A program made the translations under genes and the position numbers. The notes below the pieces were generated by a model that worked only from the letters and a program-made list of their open reading frames with translations, was not told the DNA's origin and did not search any database. A stretch of 64,000 nucleotides of DNA from Gemmatimonadaceae bacterium (GTDB lineage: Bacteria > Gemmatimonadota > Gemmatimonadetes > Gemmatimonadales > Gemmatimonadaceae), in NCBI GenBank assembly GCA_035248505.1, contig DATFHK010000012.1, forward strand, positions 27,821 through 91,820. Reading direction: 5' to 3'. This document shows, piece by piece, positions 7,559-32,285 of the stretch. Each line of letters begins with the position of its first letter. Position 1 is the stretch's first letter.

Positions 7559-9471
7559 TACGCCGGCTGCGCTGCCGCCGGTGCGCGCACGTTAGTCTTA
7601 CTCAGAGTATCGCGGAACACATCGAGGGCCAGCTCGACTTTTCCAAACGGTGCTGAGACCTGGACTCCCTGCACCAGCGGTCGCACGCGCTCGAGCATTT
7701 CACGCGCGATGGCGATTCCTTCGGCAACTCCGTGCTCCTTCGATTTCGCGCTGGCGACGCGCATGCGCTCGATGACTTTGGGCGGCACGATCACGCCCGG
7801 AACCTCGTTCGCCAGGAACTCGGCGTTTCGCAACGACACCAGCGGCCAAATGCCGGCGACGATCGGAATCCGGACATGGTTGATCGTCGACAGGAATTTT
7901 TCGAGCTGCTTGACGTCGAACACCGGTTGGGTGATCGCGTACTCGGCGCCGGCTTCGACTTTCCACTCGAAGCGTTTCAACTCGTGCGCGGGATCGATCG
8001 CCGCTGGATTGACGCCGACCCCAATCGTGAATTTCGTGGGCTGACCTATGGCGTTGCCGCCCGGATCGAGGCCGCGATTCAGGTTGTTGACCAGATTCGT
8101 CAGACCAATCGCATCGATGTCGAACACCGCCGTGGCATTTGGATATGGTCCCATCTTCGGCGGATCGCCCGTGATCAGCAGGAGATTGCGCAGTCCGACG
8201 GCGGACGCACCAAGAAGATCGCTGAGCATGCCGAGCAGGTTGCGATCGCGACAGCAGTAGTGGATGACGGTCTCGATGCCGACTTGCTGCTCGATCAGCA
8301 GACTGCAGAGCAGCGCGCCCATGCGCGATTGCGCGCGCGGCCCATCGGGGACGTTGACCGCATCGACGCCGGCGTCGCGCAACGCGGCGGTATCGCGCAG
8401 CATCTTCGACGCATCGACACCGCGTGGCGGAACGATTTCAACCGAAGTGACGAAATCTCCGCCCGCGATCTTTCGTCCCCATCTCGAGCGCTCGGCGAGT
8501 GTCACGGGCTCGACGCCTGGATTTTCTGGCGGCACGTCGGGGTGTGAATGCCGCCGCTCCTTCATCGGCACGCGCGGCTGGCGCGGCGACAGCGGTCGCA
8601 CTCCTTCCACCATCGCGGCGATGTGCTCGGGAGTCGTGCCGCAACATCCGCCGACGATCTTGGCGCCGGCTTGCACCAGATGATGCGCGTAAGTCGCCAT
8701 GTACTCGGCGCTCGCCATATACATGCTGCGGCCGCTGACATCGCGCGGCATTCCTGCATTCGGCTGGGCGCTGAGTTTGCGTCGGGTCACCGGCGCCATC
8801 TTCTCGATCGCATCGAGAATGATTTGCGGGCCGACGGAGCAATTGAGGCCAATGACGTCGGCGCCAAATGCATCGAGCGATTGCGCAAGATCCTCCGCCG
8901 TCACGCCGTATGGAGTGTGACAGTCGGAGCCAATCGTCATCTGCGCGATGACGGGCATGTTCGGGTCGACTTCGCGGGCCGCGAGAATGGCCTGCTCTAT
9001 TTCGTGCAGATCTGCGAACGTCTCCAGGATGAAGACATCGCAGCCACCATCTTTCAAGGCCTGCATCTGCTCGCGGAATGCAGCGCGCGCTTCATCGAGA
9101 CTGGTTGGACCGAAGGGCTCGATGCGCAGACCCAGCGGGCCGACGGCGCCGGCGACCAGCAGATCGTCTTCTGCAACTTCACGCGCGAGCTTTGCCGCGG
9201 CGCGATTGATTTCGGCGACCTGGGCGACGAGTCCGTATTGCTCGAGCTTGAACCGATTGGCGCCGAAGCTATTGGTCTCCAGAACTTCCGCGCCGGCCTT
9301 CCTGTAGGCGTCGTGTACGTCGCGCACGAGATCAGGAGCGCGCAGGTTGAGCTCGTCGTAGCACTGATTGATGAACACGCCCTTGTTGTAGAGCATCGTG
9401 CCCATCGCGCCGTCGAAGACGATCACCTGAAGGGGGTCGAGCAGGCGATGGATCAGCGGATTGTCAGGCAA
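7558..9471 (-). CDS. yitJ: Bifunctional homocysteine S-methyltransferase / 5,10-methylenetetrahydrofolate reductase (YitJ-like)
   Basis: DGAMGT, GLNC, GGCCGTTP followed by an MTHFR domain (EIVPP, ITGDPPK, ITQPVFD). TTG start at 9471 after AGGAGG overlaps the metH stop. Confidence 0.9.
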   Translation of the reverse strand: MPDNPLIHRLLDPLQVIVFDGAMGTMLYNKGVFINQCYDELNLRAPDLVRDVHDAYRKAGAEVLETNSFGANRFKLEQYGLVAQVAEINRAAAKLAREVAEDDLLVAGAVGPLGLRIEPFGPTSLDEARAAFREQMQALKDGGCDVFILETFADLHEIEQAILAAREVDPNMPVIAQMTIGSDCHTPYGVTAEDLAQSLDAFGADVIGLNCSVGPQIILDAIEKMAPVTRRKLSAQPNAGMPRDVSGRSMYMASAEYMATYAHHLVQAGAKIVGGCCGTTPEHIAAMVEGVRPLSPRQPRVPMKERRHSHPDVPPENPGVEPVTLAERSRWGRKIAGGDFVTSVEIVPPRGVDASKMLRDTAALRDAGVDAVNVPDGPRAQSRMGALLCSLLIEQQVGIETVIHYCCRDRNLLGMLSDLLGASAVGLRNLLLITGDPPKMGPYPNATAVFDIDAIGLTNLVNNLNRGLDPGGNAIGQPTKFTIGVGVNPAAIDPAHELKRFEWKVEAGAEYAITQPVFDVKQLEKFLSTINHVRIPIVAGIWPLVSLRNAEFLANEVPGVIVPPKVIERMRVASAKSKEHGVAEGIAIAREMLERVRPLVQGVQVSAPFGKVELALDVFRDTLSKTNVRAPAAAQPA

Positions 9472-12400
9472 CGGCTGCCTCCTGTGCGCTCGCCTGCGCA
9501 CCAGTGCCACGCACGGCGTAGTACTTGGCTTCCGGATGGTGCATGATCACGGCGGCGGTCGACTGTTCGGGAAGAAGCTGGAATGCCTCGGTGAGATCCA
9601 TGCCGAGTGCTTCTTTCGCCGGCAGCAGCTTGAATACGACAGCGTGGTCGTCCAGGTCGGGGCATGCGCCGTAACCCCACGAGTAGCGTTTGCCGCTCTC
9701 AACGCCCAGCTCGTTCTTGATGCGACGATGCGCCCACTCGGCGACAGCTTCAGCGGTCTCGACGGACAGGCCGTGCGAGTAGAAAGCTTCGGTGTATTCG
9801 TGCTTTGACTGGAGCCCGTCGAAATGTCTGGTCGCCTCATTGCCGACGGTGACGACCTGCAGTGGCACGACATCGACATCGCCGGAATCGACGCTGCGCA
9901 CGTAATCGGCGAGACAAAGCCGCTCACGCCCAACCATGCGCGGGAAGTGGAAGCGGGCAATCTCGCGCAAAGATCCACCGTCGCTCGAGTACGCAGCAGG
10001 ATCGTAGATGATTACGTCGTTGCCTTGCGACTGAGCGGGGAAGTAGCCGTAGACGACCTCAGGTTTGATCCAGCCGTTCTCTTTCGCGTCTTTCTTCAGA
10101 CGCTCCAGTGCCGGCTCGAATTCCTTTTTGACTGTTTGCTTGTAGGCATCGCCCGATCCGCGCGCGCCCCACTGCAGTCGATACAGCTCGTCGAGATCGA
10201 GGAGATCGAAGACTTCGTCGAGCGGAATGTCGCGAACGACGCGCGTGCCCCAGAACGGCGGCTTGGGAACGGGATTGTTGGCCGCGACGTCGCTGCGCTG
10301 GCCACCAGCTTCGCCGACGGCGATGTCTTTGCCGACAGCAGTCTTGAGGAAGACGTCGTTGCGCGCGTCGTCGAGGTTCTTGATCACGAAGTCTTTGCGC
10401 TGCTTCGGATCCTGGAGGACGTCCATCGTTTCCAGACCTTCGAATGCATCCTTGCAGTAGAAGACGCCGGGTCCATAGTGCCGATCGCCGTCGACGAACA
10501 GCGCGCGACGGCCGAAGCGGCGGTTGATTGCTGCACCGCCGATCAAGACGGGAATCTTCATTCCACGCTTGTCGAGCTCCTGCACGCAGAGCGGCATCTG
10601 CTTCGACGTGGAGACGAGCAGCGCGCTCAGTCCAATTGCGTCAGCACCGACTTCGACGGCCTTGTCGAGAATCGTATTGACGGGCACCTGCTTGCCGAGG
10701 TCGTAGACTGTGTAGCCGTTGTTGGAGAGAATGGTGTTGACGAGCGATTTGCCGATATCGTGCACGTCGCCATATACGGTGGCGAGCACGACCTTCCCTT
10801 TGGTGAAGCCTTCGGCTTTCTCGAGGAATTGCTCCAAATGCTTGACCGCTTTTTTCATGACTTCCGCGGACTGGAGCACGAACGGAAGGATCAATTCGCC
10901 GGCGCCGAACTTGTCGCCGACTTCTTTCATCGCCGGCAGCAGTACCTCGTTCAGCACTCGCACTGGATTCGCACGTACGCCCGCGGCATCGAGCTGCTCC
11001 TCGATGCCTTCTTTCTTGCGGTGAAGGATCATCCAATGGATTCGCTGATCGGGCTCCATGTCGGCGGTCGGATCCTCTTTCTCCGCCTGCGCTGTCGACG
11101 CCGTCGCCCCGGCCGATGCGAAGTGCTCGATAAAACGCTGAAGCGCGTCCGGCCGCTTGTTGAACACCAGATCGTCGGCCAGCTCGCGCTCCGTCTGTGA
11201 GATCTCGGCGTATGGCCGGATGTGCGCGGGGTTCACGATCGCCGCATCGAGGCCGGCCTGCACGCAATGATGCAGGAACACCGAGTTGAGCACGCCGCGA
11301 GCTTCTGATGACAGACCGAAGCTGACGTTCGATACGCCAAGAATGGTCGACACACCCGGCAGCTCGCGCTTGATAAGTCGGATTCCTTCGATGGTTTCCT
11401 TGCCCGACTCGATCCACTCCGCGTCACCGGTCGCGAGGGTGAAGGTCAGCGCGTCGTAGATGATGTCCTCGGGCGCCAGGCCGTACTCACCGACGACGAT
11501 GTCGTAGATCTTCCGTGCGACCTCGAGCTTTCGCTCGCGCGTCTTCGCCATTCCGATCTCGTCGATGGTAAGTGCGATCACTGCAGCACCATGTTTCTTC
11601 ACCAAAGGCACGACTGCATCGATGCGCTTGCGACCGTTCTCCATGTTGATGGAGTTCACAATTCCGCGCCCCGGAATGTGCTCGAGCGCCGCCTCGATGA
11701 CGTTGGCTTCGGTGGAGTCGATGACGAGCGGAGTTTCCACGCTCATCGACAGCAGTTTCACCACCTTCGACATCTGCTCTGCTTCATCCGCGCGCTCGGT
11801 CAGTGCGACACAGACGTCGAGTACGTGCGCACCGGAATCGACCTGATCGCGCGCGACCTCGAGAATTCCTTCGTAGTCGTCCGCGAGCAACAGTCGTTTG
11901 ACTTTGCGCGAGCCCTGTGCGTTGACGCGCTCGCCGACCAGCAGCGGGGGTGGATCCTGGTGCAGGGTAATCGCGCGCATCGCCGAGCTCACGCGCGGCA
12001 CGTGACTCGGATGCTGAGGCTTCGCGTCGGGCTCTGCCTTGCTTACCGCGTCGACGATCGCCGAGAGATGTTCCGGAGTGGTGCCGCAGCATCCGCCAAC
12101 AATGCGCACGCCAAAGTCACGCACGAATTCAGAGAGCGCGTCGGCCATCGGCGCCGGCTCGAGCGGATAGACTGCTTCACCGACGCCGGTGTTGAGCGGC
12201 AATCCGGCGTTGGGAATCACGGACAGCGGCAGGGTCGCGTGCTCGGAGAGATAGCGCACCGGCTCGCGCATGTGCTCGGGCCCCGTCGAGCAGTTCAACC
12301 CAATCACGTTGACGCCCAGTGATTCGAGCGTCGTCATCGCGCTGGCGATGTCGGTACCGAGGAGCATGCGGCCGCTGACATCGAGGGTGACCTGCGCCTG

Positions 12401-12994
12401 TATTGGAATGCGACGACCGATCTCCGTGAACAGCTGCTCGATTCCCGCGACTGCAGCTTTGACTTCGAGAATGTCCTGCGACGTTTCGATCAGCAGCAGA
12501 TCGACACCGCCCTCGACGAGATACTTCGCCTGCTCATAGTAATTCCCAGCCAGCTCGTCGTAAGTGATCTGCGACAAAACCGGATCAGAGCTCGATGGCA
12601 GCATCCCCGTTGGGCCCATCGATGCCGCCACGAACCGTGGTTTATCCGGCGTCGAATATTTCTCGGCTGCCGCTCGCGCGATTCCGGCCGCAGCGAGATT
12701 GACGTCGCGAACTTTGTCGCCCAGTCCCCATTCGTGGAGACGGCGCGGAGTCGATTGGAACGTGCATGTCTCGACGACGTCGCAACCGACCTTCAGGAAC
12801 GACTCGTGAATTTCCTGAATGACATCAGGCCGTGTGAGGACGAGGTGATCGTTGCATCCCTCGAGCGCTTTCCCGCCAAAATCCTCGGCGGTGAGGTGGT
12901 AGCGCTGGATGTTCGTCCCCATCGCGCCGTCGTAGACGAGGACGCGGCGATTCAGCTCATCGAGATAGCGAGATTCAATCTTTCGTTTGGCCAT
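9464..12994 (-). CDS. metH: Cobalamin-dependent methionine synthase
   Basis: Hcy domain GGCCGTT, pterin domain VGERVN, cobalamin motif GDVHDIGK..V..LS, reactivation domain RYSWGYGACPDL. Confidence 0.97.
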   Translation of the reverse strand: MAKRKIESRYLDELNRRVLVYDGAMGTNIQRYHLTAEDFGGKALEGCNDHLVLTRPDVIQEIHESFLKVGCDVVETCTFQSTPRRLHEWGLGDKVRDVNLAAAGIARAAAEKYSTPDKPRFVAASMGPTGMLPSSSDPVLSQITYDELAGNYYEQAKYLVEGGVDLLLIETSQDILEVKAAVAGIEQLFTEIGRRIPIQAQVTLDVSGRMLLGTDIASAMTTLESLGVNVIGLNCSTGPEHMREPVRYLSEHATLPLSVIPNAGLPLNTGVGEAVYPLEPAPMADALSEFVRDFGVRIVGGCCGTTPEHLSAIVDAVSKAEPDAKPQHPSHVPRVSSAMRAITLHQDPPPLLVGERVNAQGSRKVKRLLLADDYEGILEVARDQVDSGAHVLDVCVALTERADEAEQMSKVVKLLSMSVETPLVIDSTEANVIEAALEHIPGRGIVNSINMENGRKRIDAVVPLVKKHGAAVIALTIDEIGMAKTRERKLEVARKIYDIVVGEYGLAPEDIIYDALTFTLATGDAEWIESGKETIEGIRLIKRELPGVSTILGVSNVSFGLSSEARGVLNSVFLHHCVQAGLDAAIVNPAHIRPYAEISQTERELADDLVFNKRPDALQRFIEHFASAGATASTAQAEKEDPTADMEPDQRIHWMILHRKKEGIEEQLDAAGVRANPVRVLNEVLLPAMKEVGDKFGAGELILPFVLQSAEVMKKAVKHLEQFLEKAEGFTKGKVVLATVYGDVHDIGKSLVNTILSNNGYTVYDLGKQVPVNTILDKAVEVGADAIGLSALLVSTSKQMPLCVQELDKRGMKIPVLIGGAAINRRFGRRALFVDGDRHYGPGVFYCKDAFEGLETMDVLQDPKQRKDFVIKNLDDARNDVFLKTAVGKDIAVGEAGGQRSDVAANNPVPKPPFWGTRVVRDIPLDEVFDLLDLDELYRLQWGARGSGDAYKQTVKKEFEPALERLKKDAKENGWIKPEVVYGYFPAQSQGNDVIIYDPAAYSSDGGSLREIARFHFPRMVGRERLCLADYVRSVDSGDVDVVPLQVVTVGNEATRHFDGLQSKHEYTEAFYSHGLSVETAEAVAEWAHRRIKNELGVESGKRYSWGYGACPDLDDHAVVFKLLPAKEALGMDLTEAFQLLPEQSTAAVIMHHPEAKYYAVRGTGAQASAQEAAVA

Positions 12995-13027: not shown

Positions 13028-13054
13028 AAAAAAGCCCGCGCGTAGGCGCTGGGC
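13028..13054 (-). terminator. Intrinsic terminator in the metH leader (riboswitch expression platform)
   Basis: Minus strand GCCCAGCGC-CTAC-GCGCGGGC-TTTTTT. Confidence 0.8.
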
Positions 13055-13055
13055 C

Positions 13056-13110
13056 AGCGCTTTAGCGGATTGTTTAACGTGGCCGCAAGTTGCTTTAAAT
13101 CGCCACGAAG
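13056..13110 (-). ncRNA. SAM-II (SAM_alpha) riboswitch aptamer
   Basis: Minus strand CGTGGC-GATTTAAAGCAACTTGCG-GCCACG-TTAAACAATCC-GCTAAAG matches SAM-II hallmarks (P1 CGTGG/CCACG, GATTT, TTGC, TAAA, GCTAAA) and lies upstream of metH. Confidence 0.88.
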
Positions 13111-13129
13111 TCGATTGACACCCTTCACT

Positions 13130-13158
13130 ATAGTAGTCCGAAGTCGAATCCCTGGCAA
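13130..13158 (-). promoter_or_regulatory. Sigma70-type promoter of the metH operon
   Basis: TTGCCA-17 nt-TACTAT on the minus strand, about 20 nt upstream of the aptamer. Confidence 0.7.
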
Positions 13159-13167
13159 GAGTTAGGA

Positions 13168-13788
13168 CCGAGGTCTCCGGACCAACGGCACTTCTGACTG
13201 CTGACTGAGTGAGGACTGGGACCTTTTGGACGGTGCACGAGTTTGACGAGGCGCGAAGGGTAAAGGGTTTGTCGCACCGTACGAAGACCAACAGACTTCG
13301 CGCATGTCTCATTTCGGGCCCGCCTTATCCGCAGAAAGCTCCAATGATCCGCTGTTTCGAATGCGCGCGTACACGATTGCCAATAATCTTGTGGAAACCG
13401 CGTATTTGGATGCCAAGACTTTAAGTCGTGATCCAGTTGCGGAGAGGATGTCCGGACAACTCTACGCAGCCGTTGGTTCCATAGTCGCCAATCTTGGGGA
13501 AGGCTATTCACGGAGCTCGGGCAAGGACCGCGCGCACATCTTCGAGTACGCGCTTGGTTCGGTGCGAGAAGCGATGGGCTGGTACCGGGCCGCACGCCCC
13601 ATATTGGGTGAAATTGTACGGGAACGCCTCAATGCGCTCGAAGAAATTCGGCGATTGTTACTCGCGATTATCGCGCGAGAGCGGGGCAGAACAATTGGTC
13701 CGAACAAAAAATGAGGAGCAGTGCAGGCGCTTGGTCCGAGTCCTCACTCAGTCAGCAGTCAGAAATGCCGTTGGTCCGAAGACCTCGG
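13168..13788. mobile_element. Inverted-repeat-bounded four-helix-bundle cassette (arms 13168-13223 and 13733-13788)
   Basis: 56-bp arms, 53/56 identical as reverse complements, enclosing a single antisense gene. Mobility is inferred, not shown. Confidence 0.7.
13304..13714 (+). CDS. Four helix bundle protein (23S rRNA intervening-sequence protein / Avd-like)
   Basis: QLYAAVGSIVANLGEGYSRSSGKDRAHIFEYALGSVRE fits the family signature Q...S.SI..NIAEG..R.....F...A.GS..E. Confidence 0.9.
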   Translation: MSHFGPALSAESSNDPLFRMRAYTIANNLVETAYLDAKTLSRDPVAERMSGQLYAAVGSIVANLGEGYSRSSGKDRAHIFEYALGSVREAMGWYRAARPILGEIVRERLNALEEIRRLLLAIIARERGRTIGPNKK

Positions 13789-13795
13789 CCCCGAC

Positions 13796-14209
13796 TTAGA
13801 ACTCCAGCTGGTAGTCCTGCCGACTTTCTTCCCTCTGCGACCTTCCTGTCGTCCTCGACCTACTGTCAAACGACTGGACTAAAGCCAACAGTCTCTGTCT
13901 CTCCAACGGCAATACTAAATGCGCGAGTGTCGCCCGCTGCAGCTTGGGCGGCAGGAAGAGATGCTCTCCGTGCGATTTGCCGTACACGATTAACGCGGTG
14001 TTGCCGGTGACGGGCAGCGTTGCCGAGGGGCCGGCGTCTTCCACCGATTCCGTAGAAGCAACCATGATCGCGGCGTCATCGCCGGCCATGATCACCGCCG
14101 CTTCAGCGATTGTCGCGGCGAAGGTCACGTCGTGTCCGCAGCCAACCAATGTCTGCGCCAATCCTTCCAGCAGCGCGATGTCGGCGCCTACTAAAATCAC
14201 CTTACACAA
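13796..14209 (-). CDS. Hypothetical protein, atypical (pseudo) receiver-like fold
   Basis: VILVGADIALLEGLAQTL..CGHDVTFAATIAEA resembles the REC N-terminus but lacks the acidic pocket and phospho-Asp; translationally coupled to yggU. Confidence 0.6.
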   Translation of the reverse strand: MCKVILVGADIALLEGLAQTLVGCGHDVTFAATIAEAAVIMAGDDAAIMVASTESVEDAGPSATLPVTGNTALIVYGKSHGEHLFLPPKLQRATLAHLVLPLERQRLLALVQSFDSRSRTTGRSQREESRQDYQLEF

Positions 14210-17513: not shown

Positions 17514-18026
17514 ATGGCGAAGATTACCCAAGGCGCGCACAAGGATCGGCGCTACTGGCTGCTCAAATCGGACACGGACACGTTTTCCTGGGACGATCTG
17601 TGGAACGCGCCCAATCGCACCACCCATTGGGATGGTGTGCGGAATTTCCAGGCGCGCAATTACATGCGCGATGAAATGAAGAAAGGCGATCTCGCCTTCT
17701 TCTACCATTCGGGCGGAGAAGACCCGGCCATCATTGGGATTGTCGAGGTGGTGCGCGAGGGTTACCCCGACTCGACGGCGCTCGATCCGAAGGATCCGCA
17801 CTACGATCCGCGCAGCAAGGGCGGAGAGTCCCACTGGTCGATGGTGGACATCCGCGCGGTCGAGAAACTGTCCCGCCCGGTGACCCTCGCCGAGATGAGG
17901 ACCAAGCCGGAGTTGCAGGCTATGCCGCTGCTGCAGAAGGGAAACCGGCTTTCGGTGCAGAAGGTCGGGCCGGCGGAGTGGAATGCGGTGATCGCGCTGT
18001 CGAAGTTGGGGACGGACGAGGGTTGA
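17514..18026 (+). CDS. EVE domain protein (thymocyte nuclear protein 1-like)
   Basis: YWLLKS, WDGVRNFQARN, GDLAFFYHS, DPHYDPRS, RLSVQKV. Confidence 0.93.
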   Translation: MAKITQGAHKDRRYWLLKSDTDTFSWDDLWNAPNRTTHWDGVRNFQARNYMRDEMKKGDLAFFYHSGGEDPAIIGIVEVVREGYPDSTALDPKDPHYDPRSKGGESHWSMVDIRAVEKLSRPVTLAEMRTKPELQAMPLLQKGNRLSVQKVGPAEWNAVIALSKLGTDEG

Positions 18027-18169
18027 ACTACATAAAGAAGAGTACCAGCCGGCGGCCGTGAGCTTTTGCAGCCGGCAGCCCCGGGCTGCGCTTACTCCGA
18101 GATAAGGCGGCTCGGGGCCGCCGGCCCAGGGGCTCGGGGCCGCCGGCTGGTAGTCTTCCTTTTGTAGTT
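18026..18169. repeat. 144-bp non-coding element with 32-bp terminal inverted repeats (REP/MITE-like)
   Basis: 18026-18057 vs reverse complement of 18138-18169 is 29/32 identical; internal 17-bp direct repeat GGCTCGGGGCCGCCGGC at 18109 and 18131. Confidence 0.75.
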
Positions 18170-18266
18170 AAAGTCCCTTCACGGCGGTCATACTATAGAG
18201 ATACCCTGTCCGGGTCCTACTCGTCCCTGTCCTATGACCCTCTCAGCATCGTCCACCCGGTAAGCC

Positions 18267-32177: not shown

Positions 32178-32285
32178 TTTTTTTGGTTTGGGTTCGGGCC
32201 TGCCGACTGAAAGCCGCCGGCAGCCGGCTGGCACTTTTTGTTTTGTACTTAACAGCGTCTGGCCGCCAACAGGACGTGGAGAGTG

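Follow-up and report, generated by a model that had tools for sequence, protein, structure and literature searches.

The window, a stretch of 64,000 nucleotides (nt) from contig DATFHK010000012.1 (positions 27,821 to 91,820), belongs to a Gemmatimonadaceae metagenome-assembled genome (MAG) of 3.2 Mb and 87% completeness, designated G000; other G numbers denote related genomes. Between metH and an open reading frame (ORF) of 137 amino acids (aa) it carries a cassette in which a PF05635 gene for a predicted four-helix-bundle protein is enclosed by a long inverted repeat (Table 1). A repeat search returned arms of 64 nt that are complementary at 58/64 positions (91%) and separated by 509 nt, and the 56-nt core reported in the initial annotation (13168-13223 versus 13733-13788) was recovered with the same 53/56 matches (94.6%). 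A single sizeable ORF of 136 aa lies between the arms on the plus strand, while metH, the 137-aa ORF, yggU and yggT are every one encoded on the minus strand. The exact fit previously described between the stop codon of the upstream ORF and the -35 box of the metH promoter was also observed: the right arm and the stop codon overlap by one base, and the left arm begins 2 nt past the -35 hexamer. This metH promoter is conserved across all relatives compared. The 137-aa ORF is conserved in 20 of 41 related genomes and matched no Pfam or NCBIfam family, which leaves its earlier label, REC, without a basis. No rRNA was found in the window by Rfam, the cassette being located between the stop codon of a protein gene and the metH promoter and not in helix 25/45 of 23S rRNA. 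These data indicate that arm, four-helix-bundle gene and inverted arm form a discrete DNA insert directly after a stop codon, and the presence of a PF05635 gene within a long stem supports the earlier proposal of a module resembling an intervening sequence (IVS) outside rRNA.

Table 1. Features of the cassette and its immediate surroundings (window positions; for minus-strand features the 5' end of the promoter is given first)
Feature	Position	Strand	Basis or remark
metH	9464-12994	-	
SAM-II riboswitch RF00521, upstream of metH	13043-13116		Rfam
metH promoter TTGCCA-17-TACTAT, directly adjoining the left arm but external to the cassette	13158..13130	-	conserved in filled and empty relatives
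Left arm, family F1, degenerate GGAC-containing 7-nt words	13160..13223	.	inverted repeat; F1 model match 13166-13222
80-nt spacer, left arm to start codon	13224..13303	+	no Shine-Dalgarno sequence, no clear sigma-70 promoter
Four-helix-bundle gene, 136 aa, PF05635 / TIGR02436, divergent clade B	13304..13714	+	HMM scores, clades, AF2 model
Short 3' spacer, stop codon to right arm	13715..13732	+	sequence, relatives
Right arm, family F1, final base within the neighbour's stop codon	13733..13796	.	inverted repeat
Stop codon of the conserved 137-aa ORF, which converges on the cassette gene	13796..13798	-	ORF calls, relatives
137-aa ORF	13796-14209	-	

The predicted protein scored 39.9 bits against PF05635 (cut-off 33.8) and 48.7 bits against TIGR02436 (cut-off 24), and 2252 homologous clusters were found for it; there was no match among the PADLOC defence families. 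An AlphaFold (AF2) model built on 27 relatives (pLDDT 86) contains four helices in an up-down bundle like that of 2RLD and 2GSC, the two solved 'S23p' proteins. These were also the best Foldseek matches of the model (TM 0.74/0.86 for 2RLD), with the Avd protein of diversity-generating retroelements (DGRs) further down the list, and a profile match to 2GSC was obtained with E = 8e-5. Amino acid identity exceeds nucleotide identity both between two other cassette proteins of the MAG, C19 and C112 (93 versus 81%; cassettes are named after their contigs, the window cassette being C12), and between the G015 and G002 proteins found at the window site (86 versus 76.5%), indicating that the cassette protein is under purifying selection. 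Since PF05635 includes Avd and the fold resembles that of Avd in the DGR ribonucleoprotein structures 8UB7 and 8UB8, the gene could be a DGR remnant or accessory whose product works with a reverse transcriptase. However, no reverse transcriptase (RVT_1, PF00078) was detected in the 87%-complete MAG, no template/variable repeat pair is present, the neighbours are metH and a conserved ORF, and there are seven dispersed copies each with its own inverted arms, making a DGR origin highly improbable. No sigma-70 promoter was found in the 5' spacer of the window cassette, nor was there any enrichment for one over 44 cassettes of the genus when compared with an antisense control. The start 'MSH' is conserved in relatives. 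A few clade-B cassettes have a -10-like box 5-9 nt ahead of the start codon, which hints at, without establishing, a leaderless mRNA.

The initial annotation had suggested a search for other four-helix-bundle genes with long inverted repeats of their own, and these proved to be the rule. All seven PF05635 genes of the MAG lie inside inverted repeats of 56-80 nt with 85-98.5% identity. Across the genus, where the genomes carry 0-11 PF05635 genes each (29/31 genomes), an enclosing repeat, defined as one of at least 25 nt, was present at 41 of the 49 untruncated loci fetched. When 400 random G000 segments were put through the same test a single one was enclosed, and this was the window cassette itself. 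The repeat is abundant and a few genes of other families are flanked as well, as would be expected if a small gene had come to lie by chance between two members of a common repeat, but with 7/7 and 41/49 PF05635 loci enclosed this control excludes chance flanking, to which a negligible probability is assigned. Relationships among the proteins are mirrored by their arms: those of C12 and C25 are each other's closest paralogues (66% identity) and both have arms of family F1, and those of C19 and C112 (93% identity) both have F2 arms. In a set of 939 non-syntenic cassette pairs, the similarity of the proteins was correlated with that of the arms (Spearman 0.26, a value reached by 0/500 permutations), arm similarity being 0.45 where the proteins are very similar and 0.16-0.21 in the background; as kin are not independent, this correlation shows that gene and arms are inherited together as a unit, not that one binds the other. 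These data indicate that gene and arms travel together.

The arms are themselves members of large dispersed families. BLAST of one window arm against the MAG gave 53 matches, and an iterated nhmmer model recovered 120 F1 arms, comprising 50 inverted pairs and 20 solo arms. Most F1 pairs enclose no gene and form hairpins whose loops measure 1, about 30, about 62 or about 100 nt; only two have a loop above 500 nt, namely the window cassette and C25:598-1240, and both enclose a PF05635 gene. The remaining cassettes of the MAG are bounded by family F2 (109 arms; C19 and C112), F3 (41 arms; C55) and F4/F5 (about 65-96 arms; C13 and C88), and the four arm superfamilies together make up about 200 element clusters in G000, with many gene-less hairpins in each. 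Words of 7 nt recur in the arms, as GCTNNNN in the C55 family, as GGACTGC repeats in a hairpin found at the window site of G022 and as a degenerate periodicity in the window arms. The arms belong to dispersed, terminator-proximal hairpin repeat families built of degenerate 7-nt words. The initial annotation had considered that they might be ordinary high-copy repetitive extragenic palindromic (REP) sequences unlinked to the gene; with 120 F1 arms they are indeed high-copy, but the regular enclosure of PF05635 genes shows them not to be unlinked. Cassette interiors match only other cassette ORFs, and gene-less hairpins share arms alone with the cassettes. An origin of the gene-less hairpins as internal-deletion derivatives of cassettes was ruled out, nothing but the arms being in common. 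Gene-less F3 hairpins (e.g. C13:98865-99039) are conserved over about 175 nt, including a 48-nt loop that is itself conserved, have the flanks AAAAGCG...CGCTTTT and look like giant bidirectional terminators, while F2 hairpins in a relative contain an intrinsic terminator within the loop. Family F2, which brackets two other PF05635 genes of G000, also occurs in the window, as a full gene-less hairpin (arms 18024-18086 and 18110-18171, loop 23 nt) and as a solo arm (32194-32252).

The position of the elements relative to genes was determined from a G000 gene call made for this analysis (2838 genes, 90% coding). The element clusters were 93% intergenic with a median distance of 10.5 nt to a stop codon, 85 of 216 elements were located within 5 nt of a stop codon and often overlapped it, and convergent regions accounted for 36% of elements as against 17% genome-wide, a twofold enrichment. 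Genus cassettes with both neighbours called were distributed as 25 in convergent settings, 13 between co-directional genes and antisense to both, 1 between co-directional genes in sense and 1 in a divergent setting. The gene downstream of the cassette gene is almost always convergent with it among the 44 genus cassettes (loci L021-L107). An orientation antisense to all neighbours, to which attention had been drawn at the window locus, is therefore real but not special, being the norm of the genus between co-directional genes. The location at stop codons, the enrichment between convergent genes, the excess of gene-less hairpins over cassettes (about 20 to 1) with arms alone in common, the terminator-like loops or A/T-tract flanks of F2 and F3 hairpins and the occupation of one site by different hairpin families in different genomes are all consistent with a different account, in which the arms are domesticated REP-like or terminator-like repeats with a host function in termination or mRNA stabilisation. 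The PF05635 gene would then be a separate selfish or accessory gene favouring hairpin loops as a safe landing site, and the two would not constitute one element. However, protein clade tracks arm family, the two arms of one cassette resemble each other more closely (91-98%) than arms of a family do in general (about 80-90%), and at the C13 site, described below, the whole unit is absent from G002, arms included. This account is possible, though well short of probable.

Comparison of the window site between related genomes revealed several states. It is filled by a cassette in G000, G015 and G002. Empty sites between the 137-aa ORF and metH, which the initial annotation had recommended looking for, were present in G012, G011 and G004, where about 30-56 nt separate the conserved -35 box from the stop codon. 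G022 has at this position a 185-nt gene-less hairpin with GGACTGC-type words and an F1 core. In G016 and G010 (L036 and L037) the site is occupied by an unrelated gene-bearing insert of about 850 nt without inverted repeats. In the three filled genomes the riboswitch and promoter region (13043-13158) is 88-94% identical, and this similarity is lost precisely at the edge of the arm. According to the flanking ORF the three are related as ((G000,G015),G002), with 88% versus 75-77% aa identity, while it is the cassettes of G015 and G002 that are alike (protein 86%, arms 86-88%), the G000 cassette showing 62-66% protein and 65-70% arm identity to either. A maximum-likelihood protein tree likewise joined G015 and G002 (100/99), together with a third metagenomic protein, to the exclusion of G000. 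Because the cassette disagrees with the flanking-gene tree, the whole cassette was probably replaced at this site in the G000 lineage.

Turnover of a similar kind was seen at other cassette sites. At the C13 site an exact empty site is present in G002 (...GAT TAA followed at once by AAAAAAGCCGCC...), the stop codon TAA running directly into a bidirectional terminator, and in G000 a 733-nt cassette lies between TAA and the A-run with no direct duplication, its right end, TTAGTC, mirroring the native GACTAA. At the same point G015 has a gene-less hairpin of another family of about 165 nt. At the C112 site F2 arms surround a terminator loop in G015 and a gene in G000. The orthologous G002 cassette at the C88 site has an inverted interior (70% identity on the opposite strand; L027:1410-1760 versus L093:796-1147) with flanks that are colinear at 72%, as expected from recombination between inverted arms. 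At the C55 site a cassette is conserved in three genomes, with identities between genomes of 73-82% in the flanks, 64-69% in the interior, 94-100% in the inner 17 nt of the arms and 53-59% in the outer 40 nt or so of the arms, which consist of GCTNNNN words. Within any one genome the two C55 arms are nevertheless 96-100% complementary, which amounts, for each pair of genomes, to considerably more than a dozen changes mirrored in the two arms. Since the outer arms differ between genomes yet match within each, these comparisons indicate concerted evolution of the two arms within a unit. Units are present, absent, replaced or inverted at orthologous sites, and the earlier designation of the window element as a mobile unit is in keeping with this gain, loss, replacement and inversion at gene ends across related genomes. 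The window feature is a real, mobile or exchangeable IVS-like cassette.

An RNA-level counterpart of rRNA IVSs was considered, in which the arms would act as a double-stranded RNA stem in read-through transcripts and be cut by a double-strand-specific nuclease, releasing or insulating the cassette, with complementarity maintained by selection on the stem. Both strands of the window cassette fold into a long stem (z = -9 and -11), 4/6 of its arm mismatches are G-U on the host-strand RNA, the elements lie in transcribed 3' regions just after stop codons, and there is a precedent in the excision of the Coxiella IVS by RNase III (PMC4990558). The G-U excess is confined to the window cassette, however: over 44 cassettes the arm mismatches comprised 136 transversions, 48 sense-strand G-U and 56 antisense-strand G-U, which shows neither wobble tolerance nor strand bias. 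Searches for RNase III in G000 by PF14622, tblastn and the ERLEFLGD motif were negative, as were searches for the RNase III domain PF00636 in 31/31 genomes of the genus and in 59 of the 60 genomes from the order with at least 90% completeness, the single match being on a 1.5-kb contig. The whole order thus seems to be without RNase III; in a 2021 review Deinococcus radiodurans is the only organism given as lacking it (PMC8708148). The rRNA-IVS excision model accordingly does not carry over simply, and the self-excision through RNase III that had been suggested for the window element finds no support, either in the enzyme complement or in a G-U signature. As regards IVSs in the 23S rRNA of the lineage itself, one partial 23S sequence (G004, model positions 15-2044) was without a large insert, the rRNA being mostly unassembled. 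Inversion, replacement and exact empty sites are, moreover, DNA-level events, and an RNA-level role of the arms as the explanation of the cassettes is considered rather unlikely.

No mobilising enzyme was identified. Flanking direct repeats were no commoner than in shifted controls, none being present at the C13 empty/filled pair, and no Y1 transposase (PF01797) of the REP-associated tyrosine transposase (RAYT) type was detected in the MAG; the search for mobilising enzymes covered only the Y1 and reverse transcriptase families. These results agree with the original description of the locus as lacking a transposase, a reverse transcriptase and an obvious target duplication. Because neither enzyme was found in the 87%-complete MAG, the window cassette is neither a REP-RAYT system nor a DGR.

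The explanation that we favour, with moderate confidence, is that the window feature belongs to a family of hairpin-bounded PF05635 cassettes expanded in this lineage, of which it is a single copy, and is the intergenic counterpart of ORF-bearing 23S rRNA IVSs. Such a cassette would be a non-autonomous element acting at the DNA level, reaching new gene ends, that is stop-codon/terminator junctions, by an activity supplied in trans that leaves no target duplication. Dispersed arms of the same family would provide the homology by which the gene could be copied into, or erased from, gene-less hairpins by recombination, and recombination between the two inverted arms of a unit would flip its interior. 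Arm complementarity may be owed to intra-element templated repair (quasi-palindrome correction) and not to selection for an RNA stem. The protein, which is similar to the pentameric, nucleic-acid-binding Avd/S23p proteins, in all likelihood binds the repeats in arms of its own family, where it may serve protection, propagation or regulation; the one line of evidence for such binding is the co-variation of protein and arm similarity.

Several observations weigh against this explanation. Movement was not observed directly and the mobilising enzyme was not identified. The counts from the genus overstate the number of independent events because kin are not independent. DNA identity to the relatives is only about 80%, so that most intergenic junctions are not alignable base by base and insertion is not always separable from deletion; for gene-less F1 hairpins, no base-level empty sites were resolved by synteny with G002, where intergenic DNA is too diverged (about 82% identity). 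At the window site a strong rate acceleration in G000 could have occurred instead of replacement, and the window protein is on a long unresolved branch of the protein tree. The gene-less hairpins are not simple deletion derivatives of cassettes, since beyond the arms they have nothing in common with them. No promoter signal above the antisense control accounts for transcription of the cassette gene in its antisense setting. Finally, a few other small genes lie within arms of the same families, encoding an HNH endonuclease, two membrane proteins and a lipoprotein (arm identity 73-87%); given the low arm identity and the small number of such genes, this is probably, though not demonstrably, chance flanking. 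The HNH endonuclease gene (202 aa, PF14279/PF01844; L050:343-951, G000:C71:21500-22511) has F2-family arms of 73% identity, and could be flanked by chance or be a candidate nuclease tied to the hairpins. The membrane-protein genes (L048:464-853 and L049:456-887 on contigs C22 and C56 of G000; 129 and 143 aa) lie within F4/F5-family arms of 88 and 162 nt with 86-88% identity, so the arms are not strictly exclusive to PF05635 genes.

A more far-reaching reading may be put forward speculatively, although we think it unlikely. PF05635 proteins would be the sequence-specific factor of a transposase-free mode of propagation, each clade reading the 7-nt words that characterise its arm family and promoting, by fold-back or templated DNA synthesis, the copying of hairpins to stop-codon/terminator junctions, both its own cassette and, in trans, hairpins without a gene. 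Synthesis of this kind would explain arms that are perfectly mirrored and fast-changing. The rRNA IVSs would be the special case of landing in rRNA helices, and the system may have flourished in Gemmatimonadales for lack of RNase III. What the '23S rRNA IVS protein' family does, and how rRNA intervening sequences arose, have been standing questions since the early 1990s. G000 and its genus provide a compact natural experiment in which orthologous sites are empty, gene-less, filled, swapped and flipped, and the availability of cognate and non-cognate pairs from one organism makes protein-arm recognition, arm-mediated exchange and inversion directly testable.

Among known systems, miniature inverted-repeat transposable elements (MITEs) and mobile insertion cassettes, such as the Correia elements of Neisseria, are non-autonomous, have terminal inverted repeats and may carry a passenger gene, and REP sequences and bacterial interspersed mosaic elements (BIMEs) are palindromic repeats mobilised by RAYT (Y1) transposases. 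All of these are associated with target duplications and a partner transposase. Like MITEs, the cassette family has terminal inverted repeats, many short gene-less copies with few that carry a passenger, an intergenic location and no internal transposase. It differs from them in the lack of a target-site duplication and of an identified partner transposase within the two enzyme families searched, in having arms that are 56-80-nt arrays of 7-nt words evolving in concert, and in a passenger that is always PF05635 and co-varies with the arms. With REP/BIME sequences it shares high-copy palindromic repeats just downstream of genes and enriched between convergent genes, but its arms are much longer, a subset has a PF05635 gene in the loop and no Y1 transposase was found in the MAG. 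As regards DGRs, the likeness is restricted to the fold shared by Avd and the window protein. No published description of PF05635 cassettes outside rRNA was found in the literature. Intergenic heptamer arrays have been described as GGGNATC in Xanthomonas and Nostoc (PMC4692102) and as TAACTGA in Beggiatoaceae (PMC4679880), and like the arms described here these consist of words repeated with a 7-nt period, found no more than tens of bases from a stop codon where the adjoining ORFs are co-oriented or convergent. The published arrays are direct and no linked gene family is mentioned for them (PMC4692102, PMC4679880), whereas the cassette arms are inverted pairs that have diverged into complex arms and bracket a PF05635 gene, tying unexplained intergenic heptamer arrays to a protein family. 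The closest likeness in layout is to the ORF-bearing 23S rRNA IVSs of Leptospira and Coxiella burnetii (S23p ORF), in which a PF05635 protein is likewise encoded in the loop of a long inverted-repeat stem, excised by RNase III in Coxiella, and which share with the cassettes the occasional tandem heptamers, a sporadic distribution and a long-suspected mobility (PMC4990558). RNase III is undetectable in the cassette lineage, and because the whole order seems to be without that enzyme the accepted view of IVSs, built on RNase III, cannot be a complete account. In contrast to the rRNA elements, the cassettes have as their host site the intergenic spacer after the stop codon of a protein gene and not an rRNA helix, their arms belong to dispersed families with many gene-less copies, and replacement and inversion of cassettes are seen at the DNA level.

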